A DNA stretch of 64,000 bases from Pseudomonadota bacterium (GCA_008501635.1 QQUJ01000004.1:3085-67084); one strand, 5' to 3'. Numbered from the stretch's first letter, positions 28,806-64,000 are shown. Notes: a model not told the origin generated them from the letters alone. Translations and numbers: made by a program.

Positions 28806-28881
28806 AGCTCCCTTCGTCTAGTGGTCTAGGACGCTGGCCTCTCACGTCGGTAACAGGGGTTCGAGTCCCCTAGGGAGCGCC
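28806..28881 (+). tRNA. tRNA-Glu (anticodon CUC)
   Basis: 76 nt, GCTCCCTTCGTCTAGTGGTCTAGGAC...GGTTCGAGTCCCCTAGGGAGCGCCA. Collinear with E. coli tRNA-Glu. Anticodon loop CCTCTCA. Confidence 0.85.
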
Positions 28882-38400: not shown

Positions 38401-38830
38401 GGCCAGTGAGGATCACCCGTCCGTAGGTCTTGTGCGGCGGCTCGCCGCGATGGTTTACGACGCCCTTATCGTTTTCGCGTTGGTGTTCATCACGGCATTC
38501 GTGGTGCTGCAGATTTTCGGCGAACCGCTCGATAACATCGGCAAGGCGGTCCTGCAGATCGCCGCGGTACTGGTCGCTTACGGGTATTTCGCCGGCTTCT
38601 GGACCCACGGCGGGCAGACCATCGGCATGCGCGCCTGGCGCATCCGGGTGGTTGGTGTTGACCCCGTGCGCGTCACCTGGGCCAAGGCGACCCTGCGCTT
38701 CTTCGCCGCCATTCTATCCTTGCTGCCCGCCGGTCTGGGATTCTGGTGGATACTGATCGACCCGCAACGGCGCGCCTGGCATGACCGTTGGTCGCGTACG
38801 CGACTCGATCGATCAGACAGAGGCGGGTAG
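38393..38830 (+). CDS. RDD-family membrane protein
   Basis: 3-TM RDD domain (R...D...D pattern: [13 protein letters not shown]...[14 protein letters not shown]...AWHDRWS). TTG start in the track. An ATG at 38450 is an alternative. Confidence 0.55.
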
Positions 38831-38873
38831 TCCTCAAAAACCGGACCCGCGGTGACACACGCACCGCAGCCAA

Positions 38874-39033
38874 GGAACCTCTGATCAAGTCTGTTTAGAT
38901 GAGAGTGTTGTTCAGAAGGGGCGAGCTCAGGGCGGAAAATACAGGTAATAGCCCGCTATGGCCAAGCTTTCCAACACTGAAATCGTCGCTTCCGGGCAAC
39001 AGAATCACTGAACACGACTTGATCAGAGGTTCC
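38874..39033. mobile_element. MITE-like 160-bp element, copy 1, with perfect 18-bp terminal inverted repeats
   Basis: GGAACCTCTGATCAAGTC at 38874-38891 and its reverse complement at 39016-39033. About 88% identical to the inverted copy at 43678..43837. Abuts the stop codon of the tetrahaem cytochrome gene. Confidence 0.6.
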
Positions 39034-39040
39034 CTAAGAT

Positions 39041-39601
39041 TCAATCATCCCGCTCTTCGGGTGGCTTTTTGTGGGCTACACCTTTGTGGCACTCGATGCA
39101 GGTCTCGCCACGCTCTTGGGCCTTTTCCATCTTTTCTCGCGCTCGCGCTTTCTGTTTGTGGAAATCCATGCTGTCGTAACTGTGGCAGTTGCGGCATTCA
39201 CGCGAGTCATTAGCCTTCATCGTCGCCCATACATGCTCGGCCAGCTCCTTGCGTTTGGCCTCGAACTTCTCTGGCGTATCGATGGTGCCGAGCACCTTGT
39301 GATAGAGCTCGTTGGTCGCCTGGATCTTGCGCCAGACCTTGGCTCCCCAGTCGCGCGGCACGTGACAGTCAGGACAGGTCGCCCTGACGCCTGAGGCGTT
39401 TTTGTAATGGGGAGAAGTAAGGTACTCCTGATAGACCGTCCGCTCCATTTCGTGGCAGGAGATGCAGAAGGTCTGCGTGTTGGTAAGCTCCAACACGGTA
39501 TTGAACCCCCCCCAGAAGAGAATGCCGAACACCGTCCCGGACAAAAAAATCACCACCAGCCGCTTGCCCCAGCGGCTGGTGGCACCGATCGATTGCCTCA
39601 T
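39041..39601 (-). CDS. NapC/NirT-family membrane-anchored tetrahaem cytochrome c
   Basis: N-terminal TM helix plus four CxxCH motifs (CISCH, CPDCH, CRNCH, CIECH). 186 aa. Confidence 0.75.
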   Translation of the reverse strand: MRQSIGATSRWGKRLVVIFLSGTVFGILFWGGFNTVLELTNTQTFCISCHEMERTVYQEYLTSPHYKNASGVRATCPDCHVPRDWGAKVWRKIQATNELYHKVLGTIDTPEKFEAKRKELAEHVWATMKANDSRECRNCHSYDSMDFHKQKARAREKMEKAQERGETCIECHKGVAHKKPPEERDD

Positions 39602-39622
39602 GCCTGACGCGTTCCGCTGCCG

Positions 39623-40336
39623 CTATTCACTCGGCAAGGTCTGCATATAGGTGGCGAGATCGACAGCGATCTTCACATCCAAAGCCCGCAACGCCGGCAT
39701 ACTTTCGTTGGGCTGACCGTTGAGGATCTTGTGCAGCATTTCCGGTACGTTGTCGGCAACGGATCCCAGCGGCGGCGCATCTCTAACCTTTTTGCCGTCT
39801 CGCCCGTGGCAGCCGGCGCAAATGGTGTTGAAGTACGCCTCACCCTGTCCGGCGTTTCCTTTTGCAACCTTGCCTTCATAGTAGGGTGAATAGTCCACCT
39901 GACCTTTGGTGACAAATAGCGCAAGATCGCGGCGATCCGCCGCGGAGAGTTGCGCATCAGTAAAGGCGTGGTTCTTATCCCTGAGTATCGCTTCGATAGC
40001 ACTCGGGTCTTTGCCCGCCATGGCGCTGACGCCCTTGATACCGCTGGCATGGCTACCACTCTTGTAGGCCCCATCCTTGCCGCGATAGTCCCAGCCGTGA
40101 CACTCCTTGCAACGGAAAGAGTTGTGATTGGCGTATTTGCCGTCCTTGATCGGGTACGCGGCATGCTTGCCTTCAGGTTTGACAGTGCCGTTCTCTGCCC
40201 ACCACTTGTCGTAGAGCTTACCGCCGCGGGCGATCGCGGACTCCTCCTCCGCGGCCTGTACCGGCGCTACTGGCGCCACCAGCACAAGACCGAACAGGGC
40301 GAGCAATACAGCACCTGCTGAATATTTCGTTTTCAT
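39623..40336 (-). CDS. Dihaem cytochrome c (periplasmic)
   Basis: Start MKTKYSAGAV at 40336 with RBS AAGGGG. Signal peptide. Two CxxCH motifs (CKECH, CAGCH). Confidence 0.7.
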   Translation of the reverse strand: MKTKYSAGAVLLALFGLVLVAPVAPVQAAEEESAIARGGKLYDKWWAENGTVKPEGKHAAYPIKDGKYANHNSFRCKECHGWDYRGKDGAYKSGSHASGIKGVSAMAGKDPSAIEAILRDKNHAFTDAQLSAADRRDLALFVTKGQVDYSPYYEGKVAKGNAGQGEAYFNTICAGCHGRDGKKVRDAPPLGSVADNVPEMLHKILNGQPNESMPALRALDVKIAVDLATYMQTLPSE

Positions 40337-40370
40337 TGTGGTACCCCTTTCGCGAATCAAATAGTTGACG

Positions 40371-40388
40371 TAATCCACCCAAGCAAAC
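40371..40388 (-). promoter_or_regulatory. Candidate sigma-54 (-24/-12) promoter for the cytochrome genes
   Basis: Minus-strand TGGTATGTCGTTTGCT has GG and GC with exact 10-nt spacing, about 35 nt upstream of the cytochrome ATG. A palindrome TGTCAC-N6-GTGACA (40485-40502) lies about 100 bp further upstream as a possible enhancer site. Confidence 0.4.
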
Positions 40389-40508
40389 GACATACCAACG
40401 TCGCTTCTGATAGATGGAGCAAGCAACACGAAAGAGTGGGCTGACTTGATCGGCTAAACAGGTGGGTCATAGACGCGCGAAATTGTCACTGACAAGTGAC
40501 ATGTGTCG

Positions 40509-41875
40509 CTATTTTTTGACGAATCCCCATCGCTGCATGCGTACGTAGAGATTCTGACGCGGGATACCGGAGAGCCGCGCTGCTTCGGAGACATTGCCTC
40601 CAGCTGTTTCCAGCACCCGTTCCAGGTAATCGCGCTCAAAGGCATGGCGCTCAATCTGGTAGGGATCTACGCCGGTCTGCTGCTGACTTTCAACGCCGGA
40701 CACTACCCTTTCGATACACCCCACGACATGTGCCGAATCCACTGGACCGCCGGGATGAAGAGCCACAAGTCGCTCCAGGGCATGCTCCAACTCGCGGACA
40801 TTGCCGGGCCAATCGTGGGCTTCCAGCCGGCGTATGGCATCCGTCGACAGGGGGCCGACTTGCTTGTTGAATTTTTCGTTAAAGTGATCGAGAAAGTGAG
40901 TGGCGAGGCGCAGCAAGTCGCTGTCGCGCTCGCGCAGTGAAGGTAGGCGCAGCACAATAACGTTGATGCGGTAATAGAGATCCTCCCGGAAGCGACCCGC
41001 CTGCACCTCTGCCGCCAAGGCACGGTTGGTGGCACAGATCAGACGGAAATTGCTGGTACATGGCTCGGTGCTGCCAATCCGGTTAAATCGACCGTCCTGC
41101 AAGACCCGCAGCAGACTTGCCTGGAGTTTCGGACTCATGTCGGCAATCTCATCGAGAAAAATGGTGCCACCATCGGCTTTTTCGAAAAACCCGAGCGTGG
41201 CGCGCAACGCACCGGTAAATGCCCCCTTTTCGTACCCAAAAAGCAAACTTTCTAGCAGATTTTCCGGCAACGCACCGCAATTCACATCGAGGAATTTCCC
41301 CTGCGCCCGCTGACTCTCTGCGTGCACCACCTTGGCGACGAGATCCTTGCCCGTACCGCTTTCCCCTTCGAGCAGCACCGTGGCGTCCAGGTGGGCCACC
41401 TGGTGGATTTGTTCGATCAGCCGTTTCATAACAGGCGACTGGCCGATCAGGACCGGTGCACCCCCTGCCGCCGCCAGCGAAGCGCGTAGCGAATCGATCT
41501 CCCGGTAGGCGCGATCCAGCTCCAAGGCGGTGTCAATGACCCTTTCCAGCTCTTCCAGATCCTCGAAGGGTTTAGTGAGGTAATCGAACAATCCCTCGCG
41601 CACCGAGGCCATCGCATCACGCACGTCGGCGTAGCCGGTCATGAGGATCGCAACAAGGCGGGGGCGCCGTTCGCGCATCTCGCGCAGCAATTCCAGCCCG
41701 TTCCCATCTGGAAGACGCTGATCCATGAGCACGAGGTTGAAATCCTCGGTAACGAGCAGACGACGTGCTTCGGCGGCATTCTCGGCAAAGGCCGGTTGGG
41801 TCGGTCGGGTCTGAAGCAGTTCCTGCAGCAGGCCGCGAGTGTAACGATCATCGTCGACGATCAGGATTTTCGACA
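40509..41875 (-). CDS. Sigma-54-dependent response regulator (NtrC family)
   Basis: Start MSKILIVDDD at 41875. Receiver domain, AAA+ domain with GESGTGK Walker A and GAFTGA motif, C-terminal HTH. Confidence 0.85.
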
Positions 41876-43641
41876 TCAGCGCCTCTCTCCGCCTCCTCGT
41901 CGGGCAACCATATTGCAAATCGCGCGCCGCCTTCTTCACGGTTCGCGGCATCCACCCGTCCACCGTGCAGTAGCGTCACGTAAAGAACCACCGGCAGTCC
42001 CAAACCGGTGCCCTCCGGTCGGGTCGTGAAAAACGGATCGAATAGGCGCTCCATCACCTCCGGTTCCAGGCCCGGCCCTTCGTCCTCGACAGTGAGCATC
42101 CAGCCCGGGCGGCCATTCTCAGGAGAGTATCCGGGTTCCAATGTCAACCAGATGCGTCCCTTACCACCCATTGCCTGACAGGCGTTGAGCAATAGGTTGA
42201 ACAGGGCGTGTCTGAGCAGCACGGGATCGACCGCAATCCGGACCTGCTCGGGCACCCGGAGTTCCACACTGACCTGTTGTCCGCCGCTCTGGCGAAACAG
42301 CGAGATCGTCTCGCGCACCAACGCGCACAGATCTGTCGATTTGCGATGAACGCGCGAGACCTTGGTAAACTCGAGCATACGCCGTACGAAGCTTCTGCAG
42401 TCCTCACCCGCCTGGCGAATCTCGCCCAGCAATTTGCGGACCCGCAGCGGATCATCGATCACACGCTCTGCCAGCTGGGCCATATTGACCACACCAACCA
42501 GGGGATTATTCAACTGATGCGCGATCTCGCCGGTCAATGTACCGAGCGCTGAGAGCTTCTCTACCTGAGCCATGCGCTGATGTTCGGTGCTGATGTGCAA
42601 CAAGCGCATTTCAAGCTCGTGCTGCCGCTGGTAGTCGCGTTCGACACGGGCCAACGCGCTGCGAAAAAAGAGGAACACGAAGACTCCCGCCAAAACGCTG
42701 ACCAGCGTGGCCAGCAGCAGCGAGCGGCGGAAGTTGGCCTCTAACCGGGTTACGTCGCGCACGATCACCAAGCGGCCGATCTCGTTACCAGCGGCATTGG
42801 TCAGCGGCAGACTGGCGAAAAAGAGGCCTTTGCGGTTATCGCTGACCTCGATCTCCCCACCCCTCGCCAGAATGGGCGAGAACCGCTCCTTGAGCGCGAT
42901 CGGGATCCGCTCCAGGGTCTGCGCAACCAGCACAAAGGATCGAAATTCGTCCCACTGCCCTTCCCGGCCAAGCAGCCGTAATCCGGCTTCCCACCGCTCC
43001 CGCGTCAGATACTGCTTGTCGACAAAGGCCAGGAGTTCCACACCGAGTGTGGCCCGGATATCGAACAGCAGATGCTCGATCTCCTGACCGAGCTCCACGT
43101 ATCCGAGCAGTTCCGCGCCGCGTTTCCAGGGGATTACGGTGCGCAGCGTCAGGGTCCCCTGCCGGCCCAGTTCTAGGCCATAGACAACCTGCTGGAGCTC
43201 CTTCGCGCGTTGAACCGTAAACCGGTCGATCACATCGCCATACTGTTGGGGGTCATACATGCGCAACAGGTTCACCAAATCGGGACCGGTGAAATAGAGG
43301 TGGGTGATCCCGTAATCGGTGCGGATCGTCTCGAACAGCGGCGTCGCGATATCGAGCAGCGCCTGGCGATCATGGACGGCCAGCGCCTTCTCCAGTGCCC
43401 GATTGTGAAATAGCGCCGTAGCCAGGCCGCGCATCGCCTTCGCCTCTTTCTCCACCTTTTGACGCAATAGTGTACTCACAGCGCTGGCACTCTTGGCGAG
43501 ATCGTCATCGCGTGTCTTCTGTTCGAGGAAATAGACGGTGACGAGGAAGGCCGCCACCACCAATAGAACCACCACGAGAAAGGTACCAAGGATCGATGTG
43601 ACGACCCTTCGTCCATGCCGCGCTGGCCTGTCGTTTTTCAT
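41848..43641 (-). CDS. Sensor histidine kinase with large periplasmic sensing domain
   Basis: Two TM helices flanking about 290 aa of periplasmic domain. H-box (IAHQLNNPL) and HATPase_c (GTGLGLPVV). Overlaps the response-regulator gene by 28 bp. Confidence 0.8.
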   Translation of the reverse strand: MKNDRPARHGRRVVTSILGTFLVVVLLVVAAFLVTVYFLEQKTRDDDLAKSASAVSTLLRQKVEKEAKAMRGLATALFHNRALEKALAVHDRQALLDIATPLFETIRTDYGITHLYFTGPDLVNLLRMYDPQQYGDVIDRFTVQRAKELQQVVYGLELGRQGTLTLRTVIPWKRGAELLGYVELGQEIEHLLFDIRATLGVELLAFVDKQYLTRERWEAGLRLLGREGQWDEFRSFVLVAQTLERIPIALKERFSPILARGGEIEVSDNRKGLFFASLPLTNAAGNEIGRLVIVRDVTRLEANFRRSLLLATLVSVLAGVFVFLFFRSALARVERDYQRQHELEMRLLHISTEHQRMAQVEKLSALGTLTGEIAHQLNNPLVGVVNMAQLAERVIDDPLRVRKLLGEIRQAGEDCRSFVRRMLEFTKVSRVHRKSTDLCALVRETISLFRQSGGQQVSVELRVPEQVRIAVDPVLLRHALFNLLLNACQAMGGKGRIWLTLEPGYSPENGRPGWMLTVEDEGPGLEPEVMERLFDPFFTTRPEGTGLGLPVVLYVTLLHGGRVDAANREEGGARFAIWLPDEEAERGADVENPDRRR

Positions 43642-43677
43642 TACACTTCCCGCTTTCCCGAGTGCCCGTCACATTAG

Positions 43678-43837
43678 GGAACCTCTGATCAAATCGTGTT
43701 CAGTGATTCTGTTGCCCGGAAGCGACGATTGCGGTGTTGGAAAGCTCGGCCATAGCGGGCTATTACCTGCACTTTCCGCCTTGAACTCACCCCTTCCGTA
43801 CAGCACTCCCATCTAAACAGACTTGATCATAGGTTCC
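43678..43837. mobile_element. MITE-like 160-bp element, copy 2 (inverted relative to copy 1)
   Basis: Reverse complement aligns end-to-end with 38874..39033. TIRs GGAACCTCTGATCAAATC and GACTTGATCATAGGTTCC. Lies 37 bp upstream of the kinase start codon. Confidence 0.6.
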
Positions 43838-44100
43838 TCAGGTTCTACCCGTTTGCAGGGCGAGCTCTCGAACCTTCCCTCCATTGTGGCGGGGATCGCT
43901 GCGGATATCCAAAGGACGCTGACGACAAGCGACATGCAGCAAGGCGAGGGCGCGCAAGAAGCGCGTTCGGCTATACATCCGGTGATATCCCTTTGCCGGT
44001 GCGCGACCCGTTAGAATCCCGTGTACCCAAAAGCACGCCCAACTCATCCTGCTATCATGGACCGCGCTGCCCAATAGCGCACTCGACCACCAGCCCTGCA

Positions 44101-46164
44101 ATGGATACCACCACGCAGACCACCACGATCCCGCTGCACCACCCGCTGCTGCGCGGCGATCAACGCCTGCGTATCGCCTTGGTCGGTCTGCCCAAAAGCG
44201 GCAAGAGCACCATTTTCCAGGCGGTCTCCTCGACCAGCATCTATCGTGGCGAATTGCTCGGCACCCGCAAGGACTTCAGCGAATCGCGTGTGCAGATCGG
44301 GCTTGATGAAGCCTCGGTGGTGGATCTGCCCAGCATCGATGCTTTGCATCACCTACCCGAAGAGGACCGCGTCACCCTGAAGCACCTGCTGTGGGGCGAT
44401 CGCCGCCCACCGGTGAGCAGTCACGAGGGCGGCGAGCCGCCGGCGCCGTTCGCGCCACCGCAGGTGCTGATTCAGGTGGTCGACGCTACGGCGCTGCAGC
44501 CGAGCCTGGAACTCACCCTGGAACTGAGCCTGCTCGGGCGTCCGCTGGTGATCGCCCTCAATCGCCTCGACGAGGCGCGGCGCAAGGGACTGTTCATCAA
44601 CGCCGACACACTCAGCCAACAGCTCGGCGTGCCGGTGATCCCCACAGTCGCCCATATGGGCAAGGGGATAGCCGCCCTGTTCGAAGCCGCAGTGGCGGCG
44701 TATCGCAATCAGGTATGCCCGTTGCCCGAACCGGCCAGCCCCCATCTGCAGATCGCCCTGCAGCCACTCGGCAGAACGTTGGCGCGTCCGGCGCTGCATA
44801 AGGCCTTCCGGGTCCCGCAATCCCTGCTGTTGATGCAGCTTGCGGTTGGCGACGATTACTTCCAGGACGAACTTCTGGCCCACTTCCCCCAGGTGATTCC
44901 CGAGATCGCAGCCGCGTGCGTCGCTGCCGAAGAGCACCTGCCGCGACCCCTGGCCGATGAGTTGCATGCCGATCGCCACCATCGCGCGGCCACCCTCTAC
45001 GAGGCTGCGACGCGGCTCGGCGGGAGCGCTGACGACCGTCGCTGGAAGCGCTGGCTTGACGAGCTGTTTCTGCATCCACGCTGGGGGCTGGTGGGCAGCC
45101 TCGCTGTCTTCGCGCTGGTGCTCTATGTCGTCTTCGAGGTGAGCGCCGTGCTCGATAGCTGGAGCGTGGGACCGCTCACCGCGTGGGCCGATCAATGGCA
45201 GCCGCAATCGACGACCGGGGTGATCGGGCGTGCCGTCATCGACGGTCTGATCGGGCTGGTGGGCATCGTCGTGCCCTACATGATCCCCCTGGTGATGCTG
45301 CTGGTGGCGCTTGAGGAGTCGGGCATCATGCAGCGCATCGCCTTCGTGGTGGACCGCGGTTTCCATCACATCGGCCTGCACGGCGGGGTGGCGGTGCCGT
45401 TTCTGCTCGGCCTCGGCTGCAACGTCCCGGCCATCTCCGCAGCCGCGCGCATGGGTCAGGGGCGCGAGCGGGTCGTCGCCGCGCTGCTGATCACCTTCGT
45501 CCCCTGCTCGGCGCGCTCGGCCGTCATCCTCGCCATCGGTGGCAAGTATCTCGGCGGCCTCGGTGTCTTCGCCATCTTCGCCATGACCCTGGTGGTGATC
45601 GCGGTACTGGGGCGCGTGCTGTCGCCGCGCTTCGGCGACGCCATGCCGGGGCTGATCCAGAACATCCCCGCCTATCGACTCCCCCGCTTCCGGTCCCTGA
45701 CAGCACAGACCTGGGAACGCACCAGCGACATCCTCACCATCGTCACGCCGCTGCTGGTGGGCGGTAGCGTGGTGCTGGCCCTGCTCAGCCATGCCGGCGC
45801 AGACGCCACGATCAACACCCTGCTGATGCCGATCACCGACTGGTGGCTGGGCCTGCCGGTGGTACTTGGCGTACCGATCCTGTTCGGCATCCTGCGCAAG
45901 GAGCTGTCGCTGCTGATGGTCTACCAGGCGCTCGGCACCTTCGAGATCGGTCCGTTGCTGAGCGATGTGCAAATCCTCACCTTTCTGCTCTTTCTCACCT
46001 TCTATGTCCCCTGCATCTCGACCTTCGCGGTGATGATGAAGAGCCTGGGGCAGCGCGAGGCGTTCTACTCGGTGACACTTTCGGTGGGCGTGGCGCTGGT
46101 GATCGCCGGGGTGGCGCGGGCGTTGATGGAAACGGCTGCCTGGGTGACGGGCGGCTGGCTCTAA
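44101..46164 (+). CDS. feoB: Ferrous iron transporter FeoB
   Basis: Start MDTTTQ at 44101. G-domain G1 GLPKSGKST and G4 NRLD. Polytopic gate and core domains. No feoA seen. Confidence 0.75.
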   Translation: MDTTTQTTTIPLHHPLLRGDQRLRIALVGLPKSGKSTIFQAVSSTSIYRGELLGTRKDFSESRVQIGLDEASVVDLPSIDALHHLPEEDRVTLKHLLWGDRRPPVSSHEGGEPPAPFAPPQVLIQVVDATALQPSLELTLELSLLGRPLVIALNRLDEARRKGLFINADTLSQQLGVPVIPTVAHMGKGIAALFEAAVAAYRNQVCPLPEPASPHLQIALQPLGRTLARPALHKAFRVPQSLLLMQLAVGDDYFQDELLAHFPQVIPEIAAACVAAEEHLPRPLADELHADRHHRAATLYEAATRLGGSADDRRWKRWLDELFLHPRWGLVGSLAVFALVLYVVFEVSAVLDSWSVGPLTAWADQWQPQSTTGVIGRAVIDGLIGLVGIVVPYMIPLVMLLVALEESGIMQRIAFVVDRGFHHIGLHGGVAVPFLLGLGCNVPAISAAARMGQGRERVVAALLITFVPCSARSAVILAIGGKYLGGLGVFAIFAMTLVVIAVLGRVLSPRFGDAMPGLIQNIPAYRLPRFRSLTAQTWERTSDILTIVTPLLVGGSVVLALLSHAGADATINTLLMPITDWWLGLPVVLGVPILFGILRKELSLLMVYQALGTFEIGPLLSDVQILTFLLFLTFYVPCISTFAVMMKSLGQREAFYSVTLSVGVALVIAGVARALMETAAWVTGGWL

Positions 46165-63401: not shown

Positions 63402-64000
63402 TCAGGGGTGCCTCACACTGCCCCCAATGATCGCGAATGACAATAGCGGCCGCAAGCGCCGACGAAAAACAAGCAGTGCGATCAACAGCAACAGCATAAC
63501 GCCAGCCGCAACCGGATACGCGATCGCGAGCACTACCGGAGCGAGTACGCCGCGAACCAGCGCGCGCGCCCAGTCACGCGCCGCGATCCAGTCGGCGAGC
63601 GGCGGCGAGACGCGGTAGTACCAGTCCACGAAGGATTGACCCGGTGCATTCGTGAGCAGCCAGCGGTCGCGGAACTGGCGCAGCGTGGCGACATGAGGGT
63701 CGAGCCAGGAGCCATAAGCTGCCGTGGCGATAAAACACAGGCCATCAGTCCCGAAGACGACATCACCCGTGCCGTCACCACCACCAGGAAACGGAATGAC
63801 AACCTGAATCGCGGGCGAGAAAGCCACGTTGTTGCCTTCCTCGGGGTCGAACGTAGCGTGAACGATCTCGACTCGCATTGTCTCGAGACCAACCGGGCCA
63901 GACAGGGCTCGAAACACACGGCTCTCGGTCAGCTGCCCCCCCGGCGGTACGGGCGAATCGAGAGGTACGTCGTACACTGTTCCATGTTCGCACACTGGAC
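63402..64000 (-). CDS. Partial gene (N-terminus beyond window end): secreted protein with conserved CFIATAAYGS...LRQFRDRWLL motif followed by a C-terminal TM helix and RRR tail
   Basis: Open frame continues to the window edge. C-terminal architecture (Cys-containing conserved block, hydrophobic helix, basic tail) resembles a C-terminal sorting or anchoring signal. Confidence 0.45.
   Translation of the reverse strand, partial: PVCEHGTVYDVPLDSPVPPGGQLTESRVFRALSGPVGLETMRVEIVHATFDPEEGNNVAFSPAIQVVIPFPGGGDGTGDVVFGTDGLCFIATAAYGSWLDPHVATLRQFRDRWLLTNAPGQSFVDWYYRVSPPLADWIAARDWARALVRGVLAPVVLAIAYPVAAGVMLLLLIALLVFRRRLRPLLSFAIIGGSVRHP

Follow-up and report, generated by a model that had tools for sequence, protein, structure and literature searches.

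Two short inverted sequences lie on either side of four genes in a 64,000-nt stretch of DNA from a Pseudomonadota bacterium (GCA_008501635.1, QQUJ01000004.1:3085-67084), and the locus raises the question whether they are the ends of a unit that moved the genes as a whole, or two members of a mobile family that came to lie around the genes by chance. We refer to the whole stretch as the window and count positions from its first letter; the two sequences are called copies A and B (for coordinates, see Table 1). An earlier note, made from the sequence alone, had described them as resembling miniature transposable elements with inverted repeats (MITEs) and as a possible composite mobilisable unit. 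Our analysis indicates that A and B are very probably copies of a widespread non-autonomous MITE family that is mobilised in trans by IS5-group transposases, and that the two were most likely inserted separately.

The inverted pair and its family

A repeat search of the window finds the inverted pair at 38873-39037 and 43674-43838, 165 nt long and 92% complementary. When copy B is reverse-complemented, the two copies have 92% column identity in a MAFFT alignment and 14 mismatches over 165 nt by BLAST, a divergence of about 8%. The earlier description of an inverted pair of 160-bp elements therefore stands, with the identity raised from about 88% to the ∼91-92% measured here. The shared sequence runs from 1 base before the left terminal inverted repeat (TIR) to 4 bases (CTAA) past the right TIR. 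The 18-mer GGAACCTCTGATCAAGTC occurs four times in the window at three or fewer mismatches, always at an element end, compared with a chance expectation of 0.03. Perfect 18-bp TIRs had been claimed for both copies; this is correct for copy A, whereas each TIR of copy B carries one mismatch.

Neither copy has any coding capacity (the open reading frames [ORFs] that overlap the copies are not common to both), which agrees with the earlier observation that neither encodes a transposase. A tblastn search with IS5-type transposases gave no match in the window. With a hidden Markov model (HMM) of the family, copy A scores 105 bits on the plus strand and 52 bits on the minus strand, and copy B 104 bits on the minus strand and 37 bits on the plus strand; the model finds no further copy in the 64-kb window.

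Beyond the window the family is widely dispersed. A scan for the pattern TIR-N(115-145)-TIR, with one genome per species, found 36 genome loci. At least 12 loci lie in one gammaproteobacterial metagenome-assembled genome (MAG; S146_68), and four each in UBA2770 and B4_G11. Single copies are present in Marinobacter, Pseudohongiella, Hydrocarboniphaga, Woeseiaceae, Sedimenticolaceae, and one betaproteobacterium, and three copies were found in Eremiobacterota/Vulcanimicrobiota MAGs. A single-TIR scan of metagenome contigs yielded at least 120 loci. The family set used below comprises 79 distinct full-length copies from genomes and metagenomes, 130-200 bp long but mostly 159-163 bp. Among 27 diverse copies, the first 15 nt of the TIR show no or almost no variation (at least 25 of 27). 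In one Marinobacter MAG (L025:4200-4378) only 3 nt separate the end of one element from the beginning of a full copy; the two stand back-to-back, with a few bases of YTAR-like target sequence in between.

The flanks of the copies carry a clear signature of insertion. The 4 nt on either side of the element are identical in 39 of 78 copies and differ by one mismatch in 20 more, while the next 4 nt outward, taken as a control, are identical in 1 of 78. The perfect target-site duplications (TSDs) are YTAR (CTAA, TTAG, TTAA, or CTAG) in 32 of 39 cases; IS5 is documented to insert at this motif with a 4-bp duplication (PMC5009759). Since each YTAR tetranucleotide includes TAA or TAG, copies are found almost only in intergenic DNA (73 of 74) and the family often lands on stop codons: A stop codon abuts the TIR at nine of 61 adjacent gene ends, and at four more the gene uses a TGA inside the TIR.

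Autonomous insertion sequences (ISs) with matching ends were also identified. The first of these, at locus L153, has the exact TIR at position 1 and, starting 67 nt after the TIR, an ORF of 327 aa that is 48% identical to Escherichia coli InsH over 318 aa (tblastn); matching IS ends are present in L128 and L186 as well. Complete IS elements were retrieved as the DNA of close homologues of the 327-aa protein. One of them (L208:791-1996, 1206 bp) has identical 18-bp TIRs at both ends and CTAA/TTAG flanks. A second (L210:31-1236, 1206 bp) has one mismatch in the right TIR and TTAG/TTAA flanks, and a third, from Telmatobacter bradus (L211:1434-2630, 1197 bp), has one mismatch in the left TIR, a right TIR matching at 15 of 18 positions, and a perfect CTAA duplication. 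On the NCBIfam model NF033581, "IS5 family transposase" (cutoff 140), their transposases reach 327-335 bits, and Pfam identifies the domains PF01609 and PF05598. Related IS elements occur in Acidobacteriota, and the right inverted repeat of E. coli IS5 itself equals the MITE TIR at 13 of 18 positions. No transposase was found among the ORFs beside lone TIRs in L025, L029, and L030.

The TIRs of the family are not confined to the 160-bp form. At a number of metagenome loci (L097, L137, L139, L147, L158, L185, L168, L190, L108, L126, and others) they delimit other non-autonomous elements of 66-372 bp, which have different interiors but the same YTAR duplications. This indicates that the TIR defines what gets mobilised, the 160-bp form being the most abundant passenger. 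A recurrent form of ∼260 bp among these elements folds at -130 to -180 kcal/mol.

Taken together, the 160-bp elements are small and lack a transposase ORF, have TIRs and family-level TSDs, occur as dispersed copies, and share their TIRs with an autonomous element. The proposal of a non-autonomous TIR family, made from this one locus, is borne out by the many copies in many genomes, their 4-bp YTAR duplications, and the IS5-family elements with identical TIRs. The earlier note had also suggested a search for a cognate transposase, and the L208 element now supplies a candidate. It had further asked whether the pair might be without other copies or TSDs, both of which exist across the family, or might belong to a known structured RNA family. 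In Rfam 15 the window has no match at the gathering score besides one tRNA gene (28807-28879, plus strand), and the interval 38800-39100 has no match even at E ≤ 10. The TIR string was not found in a literature search (ISfinder was outside its scope), and a plasmid collection holds no copy of the 160-bp family, only a related Xanthomonas MITE. Matches on viral contigs consisted of 42 lone 15-mers without a second TIR and were taken as chance.

The window matches CP053451.1 (GCA_013285485.1, MAG PRO23) at 99.97%. This MAG represents a proteobacterium of a marine anammox reactor and was built from Nanopore and Illumina reads, with a completeness of 70.7% (PMC7358590); given this combination of reads, frameshift errors are likely. 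We covered ∼85 kb of the source genome around and including the window, and this holds three MITE copies. The third copy (L216:17510-17663) lies ∼2.5-2.9 kb left of window position 1 and belongs to the same subfamily as A and B; its TIRs are decayed (GCAACCTCTGTTTGATTC and GACCTGATCAGGGGTACC), and a TSD cannot be recognised. It is carried by a Logan contig that ends ∼300 nt beyond the copy. On the other side, ∼5-6 kb right of window position 64000, CP053451.1 carries an IS5-group IS of 1172 bp (L217:1104-2275), with TIRs GGCATCTCTGATTAAGTC and GGAACGTCTGAATAAGTG (15 and 14 of 18 positions matching the MITE TIR) and flanks CTAA and CTAG. The encoded transposase shares 54% identity with the L153 protein and is uncalled in the GenBank record; it is split over two frames, which could be a Nanopore error or real decay.

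Several observations weigh against the reading of A and B as passengers of an IS5-group transposase. A perfect TSD is present at neither window copy (three of four positions at each). Within the ∼85 kb of source genome there is no autonomous IS with exactly matching TIRs, and the one nearby IS has the diverged TIRs and two-frame transposase just described. Local alignments show no significant similarity between the MITE interior and the IS subterminal regions (z < 4), and nhmmer with the MITE HMM extends only ∼25 nt past the TIR into the IS left end (E ∼ 1e-5). Finally, TIR recognition alone leaves a full-length covarying hairpin, a conserved apex, and a G·U polarity unaccounted for. The alignments rule out the MITE as a simple internal-deletion derivative of the IS. 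MITE status does not, however, require an IS-derived interior, and elements that share only TIRs with their partner are common.

The mechanism that we propose has the following steps. By analogy with the IS5 family, an IS5-group DDE transposase would recognise the ∼18-bp TIRs (GGAACCTCTGATCAAGTC) in trans; the element inserts at YTAR tetranucleotides and duplicates them, as the flanks across the family show. A and B would be separate insertions made some time ago, one into a convergent 3′ and the other into a divergent 5′ intergenic region, and the four-gene block would have been bracketed by chance in a genome with several copies. The copies able to propagate would be those that keep one particular single strand foldable.

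Table 1. Positions in the window of the two elements, their parts, their flanks, and the genes between them
Feature	Position	Strand	Remarks
Copy A	38874..39033	+	160 bp; better-folding (forward) strand is window plus
Copy B	43678..43837	-	160 bp; forward strand is window minus
Left TIR, copy A	38874..38891	+	GGAACCTCTGATCAAGTC; 0 mismatches; includes a GATC site; same as TIRs of the autonomous IS in L208
Right TIR, copy A	39016..39033	-	Exact reverse complement of left TIR
Kinase-proximal TIR, copy B	43678..43695	+	GGAACCTCTGATCAAATC; 1 mismatch
feoB-proximal TIR, copy B	43820..43837	-	GGAACCTATGATCAAGTC; 1 mismatch; second MAG of same species carries the consensus base
Left flank, copy A	38870..38873		CCAA; decayed TSD half; 3/4 match to CTAA at 39034-39037
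Right flank, copy A	39034..39037		CTAA; fits YTAR
Flank, copy B	43674..43677		TTAG; fits YTAR; 3/4 match to TCAG at 43838-43841
Flank, copy B	43838..43841		TCAG; decayed TSD half
Apical domain, copy A	38928..38977	+	Element positions 55-104; CAGGGCG ... GTAATAGC-CCG-CTATGG ... CAACAC
Apical domain, copy B	43734..43783	-	Element positions 55-104; read on minus strand
Four-gene block between copies	39041..43641	-	Pfam; matching gene calls in CP053451.1 and WYBF01000141.1; context, not part of the element
NapC/NirT tetrahaem cytochrome	39041..39601	-	Pfam
c-type cytochrome	39623..40429	-	Pfam
Sigma-54 response regulator	40509..41963	-	Pfam
dCache_3 histidine kinase	41848..43641	-	Pfam

The hairpin and its strand polarity

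Each element is predicted to fold end to end as a single 160-nt hairpin, which consists of the 18-bp TIR stem, a variable but covarying stem, and an apex conserved in sequence. As RNA, copy A folds at -85.8 kcal/mol on the plus strand (z = -11) and at -71.2 kcal/mol on the minus strand; with DNA parameters the values are -39.3 for the forward and -32.0 for the reverse strand. Copy B folds at -69.8 kcal/mol forward and -54.0 kcal/mol reverse.

The structure is well supported by covariation. In an alignment of 27 diverse copies with a mean column identity of 60%, RNAalifold predicts 49 pairs, 34 of them with compensatory double changes. Paired cells amount to 91.6%, compared with 74.6% in shuffled alignments, and double-change cells number 206, compared with 65.5. 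The covariation score is 0.431 against 0.140 in shuffles (none of 500 reaches 0.431), and it falls to 0.08-0.11 when the partners are slid by 1-3 columns. Outside the TIRs, the sequence is conserved mainly at the apex (CAAGGCG, TAATAGC-N4-GCTATTGC, and CAACG; element positions 56-102), and these blocks are conserved across 33 subfamily representatives and across phyla. In copy A the apical domain is predicted to form an asymmetric internal loop and a terminal hairpin. Inspection by eye ruled out a K-turn in the conserved internal loop, since C-G pairs and not tandem G·A follow the bulge.

The interior is asymmetric enough for the copies to be oriented by homology, and the strand defined as forward in this way has the more stable fold in 35 of 37 genome copies, and in 74 of 79 when all copies are counted. 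For metagenome copies that had no part in building the orienting HMM, the forward strand is the better one in 36 of 38, by a mean of -18 kcal/mol. The difference arises because a G·U pair of the forward strand turns into an A·C mismatch on the opposite one. Among departures from consensus Watson-Crick pairs within subfamilies we count 44 G·U and 15 A·C (P = 2e-4, binomial test, although the cells are not phylogenetically independent), together with 38 fully compensated changes. In the youngest burst, that of S146_68, the ratio of G·U to A·C is neutral (5:5).

We found no relationship between this polarity and the surroundings of the copies. There is no orientation bias with respect to flanking genes: Between tandem genes, 12 copies have the same and 15 the opposite orientation, and 3′ of a single gene 14 are sense and 25 antisense. 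The bias relative to local GC skew is not significant (23 vs. 38, P = 0.07), and no conserved sigma-70-like promoter was found in 72 copies in either orientation. Explanations of the polarity by co-transcription or by the replication strand are therefore unsupported, and the polarity is intrinsic to the element. Our best guess is that the hairpin may be selected for competence in mobilisation, as a folded single strand that would join both ends; a host-level RNA function seems less likely.

An alternative explanation is that the elements are primarily a mobile structured nucleic-acid module, a functional RNA or single-stranded DNA (ssDNA), for which TIRs and TSDs are only the delivery vehicle. 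As an RNA it might act, for example, as a transcript-stabilising stem, as a stem processed by RNase III, or as the precursor of a small RNA. The strong covariation, the apex kept across 33 subfamilies and phyla, the preference for the forward strand, and the excess of G·U over A·C are all consistent with such a module. Moreover, both window copies would place the forward strand in the sense transcript of a neighbour (the 3′ region of the RDD-protein gene for A and the 5′ leader of the kinase for B), and hairpin transcripts of Correia and ERIC elements have effects that involve RNase III or RNase E (PMC10969869). The explanation is nevertheless doubtful. It has to contend with the missing orientation bias toward flanking genes, the lack of a conserved sigma-70-like promoter in the 72 copies, the nonsignificant GC-skew bias, the absence of an Rfam match, and G·U counts that are not phylogenetically independent. 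In addition, the 66-372-bp elements share TIRs and TSDs but have other interiors, which shows that the interior is unneeded for insertion as such. In a version of this idea that we likewise hold to be possible but unlikely, the 160-bp form would be a distinct cross-phylum mobile module whose apex (CAAGGCG / AAUAGC-N4-GCUAUU / CAACGC) and strand-specific, G·U-tolerant hairpin are selected in the form of a folded single strand, perhaps a structured RNA, perhaps an ssDNA intermediate presenting both ends to an IS5-type transposase.

The bracketed genes: composite unit or independent insertions

Whatever the role of the hairpin, it has to be decided whether the two copies moved the genes between them. 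The earlier note had envisaged a composite mobilisable unit. In a composite transposon of this kind, the inverted MITEs would delimit 4.96 kb, and the cytochrome/two-component module would have been moved whole by an IS5-type transposase. The arrangement is suggestive, as the copies do bracket exactly the four genes that had been listed (a tetrahaem NapC-like cytochrome, a dihaem cytochrome, a sigma-54 regulator, and a kinase), which Pfam finds on the minus strand and which are functionally coherent. Any correctly oriented TIR pair would in principle be a substrate for the transposase, and MITE-flanked mobilisable units are documented elsewhere, for example around class 1 integrons of Acinetobacter (PMC10969869). 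The cytochrome genes also have a slightly lower GC content (0.56-0.57) than the window mean (0.60), which is weak evidence at best.

The flanking sequences argue otherwise. On the plus strand they read CCAA[A]CTAA ... TTAG[B]TCAG, and a target direct repeat around the whole unit is missing: The outer flanks, CCAA and TCAG, match at two of four positions, compared with three of four for the flanks of each copy taken by itself. The divergence of ∼8% between the copies, together with one decayed TSD position at each, suggests insertions that are separate and not recent. Pairs of copies also recur in other places. Five of 72 other loci hold pairs 0.1-8.4 kb apart, and in all five the flanks of each copy have 0-1 mismatches and match as well as or better than the outer flanks. 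The third copy nearby in the same genome makes a chance bracket plausible here too.

The nearest homologues of the NapC-like protein outside the species are 72%-74% identical, and their loci hold the two-cytochrome pair only, without the kinase and regulator, without MITEs, and in unrelated contexts. The complete arrangement of copy A, module, and copy B was found at the same locus only, which is represented by two MAGs from a single species and by Logan contigs; the next relatives, at 72%-74%, show no synteny. We conclude that A and B most likely inserted independently and that their bracketing of the four genes is incidental, and we regard the composite transposon as very improbable; no relative shows the module moving. 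Future mobilisation of the block would be possible in principle, as MITE-flanked units exist elsewhere. An inversion between the copies was considered and set aside: It would not repair the TSDs, since the inner flanks CTAA and TTAG are mutually reverse-complementary.

That B is a one-off inverted duplicate of A, or the reverse, with no mobile family involved, has next to no probability: The two copies are mutually closest, with an interior beyond the apex common to no copy from other genomes and an identity that runs 1 nt and 4 nt past the TIRs, to 165 nt, but more than 79 homologous copies with YTAR TSDs exist in unrelated genomes, autonomous IS elements have the same TIRs, the same genome has a third copy of the subfamily elsewhere, at an unrelated site, and the extra shared flank bases simply equal the YTAR target (CTAA).

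Comparison with the second MAG of the same species (WYBF01000141.1, locus L082) shows an uneven distribution of differences. There are 13 over 12,690 aligned nt, all of them within a 412-nt patch (43534-43945) centred on copy B and seven inside the element; the remaining 12.3 kb, including copy A, are identical. At five of the seven in-element differences the second MAG has the base of copy A, and one of these restores a perfect TIR. The patch could result from gene conversion, could be a recombination patch, or could be an artefact of the contig end or of polishing (the L082 contig ends at window position 44038). Short-read assemblies in Logan (L083-L086) break repeatedly inside A and B, and the breaks leave contigs of 4.6-4.8 kb that hold exactly the four-gene block.

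Neighbouring genes, related elements, and significance

Outside the pair, Pfam identifies genes for a DeoC aldolase and an RDD protein to the left and for FeoB to the right. Copy A has a convergent setting, between the RDD gene (plus strand, ending at ∼38830) and the NapC/NirT gene (minus strand). The earlier note had one copy touching the stop codon of the last gene; the TIR of copy A in fact stops short of the NapC stop codon (39041-39043) by 7 nt, or by 3 nt with the flanking CTAA included. On the plus strand, a terminator-like hairpin with a T-run (39045-39074) directly follows copy A and falls within the NapC/NirT coding sequence of the minus strand, at its 3′ end; taken as a whole, the terminator scan is not above chance (eight found, 5.4 expected). 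The RDD transcript may carry the forward hairpin of copy A in its 3′ end, before this terminator-like hairpin, which, if real, would end the transcript once copy A has been read through. The copies themselves were ruled out as intrinsic terminators, as there is no T-run after the hairpin on either strand.

The setting of copy B is a divergent intergenic region, with the histidine-kinase gene (minus strand) on one side and feoB (plus strand) on the other, and the end of the copy is 36 nt from the kinase ATG (43641), close to the 37 bp given previously. From this ATG to the probable feoB start (∼44101) there are ∼460 nt, of which copy B takes up 164, so the kinase promoter must lie inside or beyond copy B. 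A promoter beyond the copy would put the forward hairpin in the kinase 5′ leader. The earlier note had suggested that this copy could supply or disrupt promoter sequence; a strict scan of 38700-44100 found no sigma-70-like promoter, in or beside copy B or elsewhere in the interval. The FeoB ORF (43993-46164, plus strand) is intact in the window and uncalled as a gene in CP053451.1; the longest ORF has an N-terminal extension that is not FeoB-like, and the true start is likely the ATG near 44101. No recognisable FeoA ORF lies between copy B and feoB.

Within the block, a sigma-54 promoter-like sequence (TGGTATGTCGTTTGCT; GG-N10-GC) occurs on the minus strand at 40382-40397, directly downstream of the gene for the sigma-54 response regulator and in a position ∼45 nt upstream of the called start of the c-type cytochrome. 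The sequence suggests that the two-component pair may drive the cytochrome pair; the promoter pattern is not enriched in the window (31 matches, 35.6 expected).

Among known systems, the closest likeness is to IS5 of E. coli and the IS5 group. The TIRs begin with GGAA and match the IS5 right inverted repeat at 13 of 18 positions, the target is a duplicated 4-bp YTAR, and the full-length relatives with identical TIRs encode an IS5-family DDE transposase. Unlike IS5, the window elements are 160 bp long, have no ORF and an unrelated interior, and form a full-length hairpin, which IS5 does not. The Xanthomonas perforans plasmid CP077786.1 carries a MITE (L037:2871-3021) that is similar in length (151 bp), in its TIRs (GGAAGCTCTGAACAACTC and GGAACCTCTGAACAACTC), and in its CTAA duplication, but differs in its interior and at three TIR positions, and therefore represents another family within the IS5-type class. 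This one 137-kb plasmid has it at 11 places, and a partial copy is found on a Xanthomonas phaseoli plasmid.

A preference for folding on one strand is also known from integron attC sites and the ends of IS200/IS605 elements, which are recombination substrates folded as single strands, imperfect palindromes that fold better on one defined strand. Their recombinases are of the tyrosine or HUH type, and these systems are not known to make TIR-type ends or 4-bp YTAR duplications. The likeness is thus one of analogy only, in the one-strand folding preference, and a replication-strand bias was not detected in the present family.

We also compared the family with hairpin-forming bacterial MITEs: Correia/NEMIS of Neisseria, ERIC of Enterobacteriaceae, RUP and BOX of Streptococcus pneumoniae, and QMITE2 of Coxiella. 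Such elements are 100-250 bp long, with TIRs and a short TSD, are intergenic, give a stable stem-loop transcript, and are mobilised by an IS transposase in trans (PMC10969869, PMC2229807). The window family resembles them in size, TIRs, short TSD, intergenic location, and a very stable predicted stem-loop. It differs in the TIR sequence, the parent IS family, the target (4-bp YTAR here), and a far wider host range (Gammaproteobacteria, Betaproteobacteria, and Eremiobacterota; the parent IS is found in Acidobacteriota). For the hairpin MITEs an IHF site, a promoter, and RNase III cleavage are documented features. In the Acinetobacter class 1 integrons, the MITEs on the two sides are identical, and one and the same pair is seen around different integrons in several strains and species (PMC10969869). 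There, as here, two MITE copies bracket a gene module, but the window copies are ∼8% apart, have their own decayed TSDs and mismatched outer flanks, and occur at one locus.

For this locus, these results take away the grounds for regarding the cytochrome/two-component block as a mobile cassette. They leave the 5′ region of the kinase operon and the 3′ region of the RDD gene each with a 160-nt hairpin-forming insertion, and effects on expression are possible. The family itself was not found in the literature searched; its IS5-group parent is now identified, and its members extend over Gammaproteobacteria, Betaproteobacteria, and Eremiobacterota. Knowledge of the family is useful for the annotation of repeats and in explaining contig breaks in MAGs: The short-read contigs that end inside A and B show that such repeats fragment these assemblies.

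Bracketing of genes by elements of this kind is ordinary. What goes beyond the routine is the conservation across phyla of a strand-specific hairpin with a conserved apex, and the family could provide a test case for why MITEs keep full-length hairpins, with a polarity that is matched neither by neighbouring transcription, nor by replication-strand skew, nor by an internal promoter. If the structured strand is indeed what is selected, this would be a DDE cut-and-paste family with a non-autonomous partner whose mobility or persistence depends on strand-specific structure.

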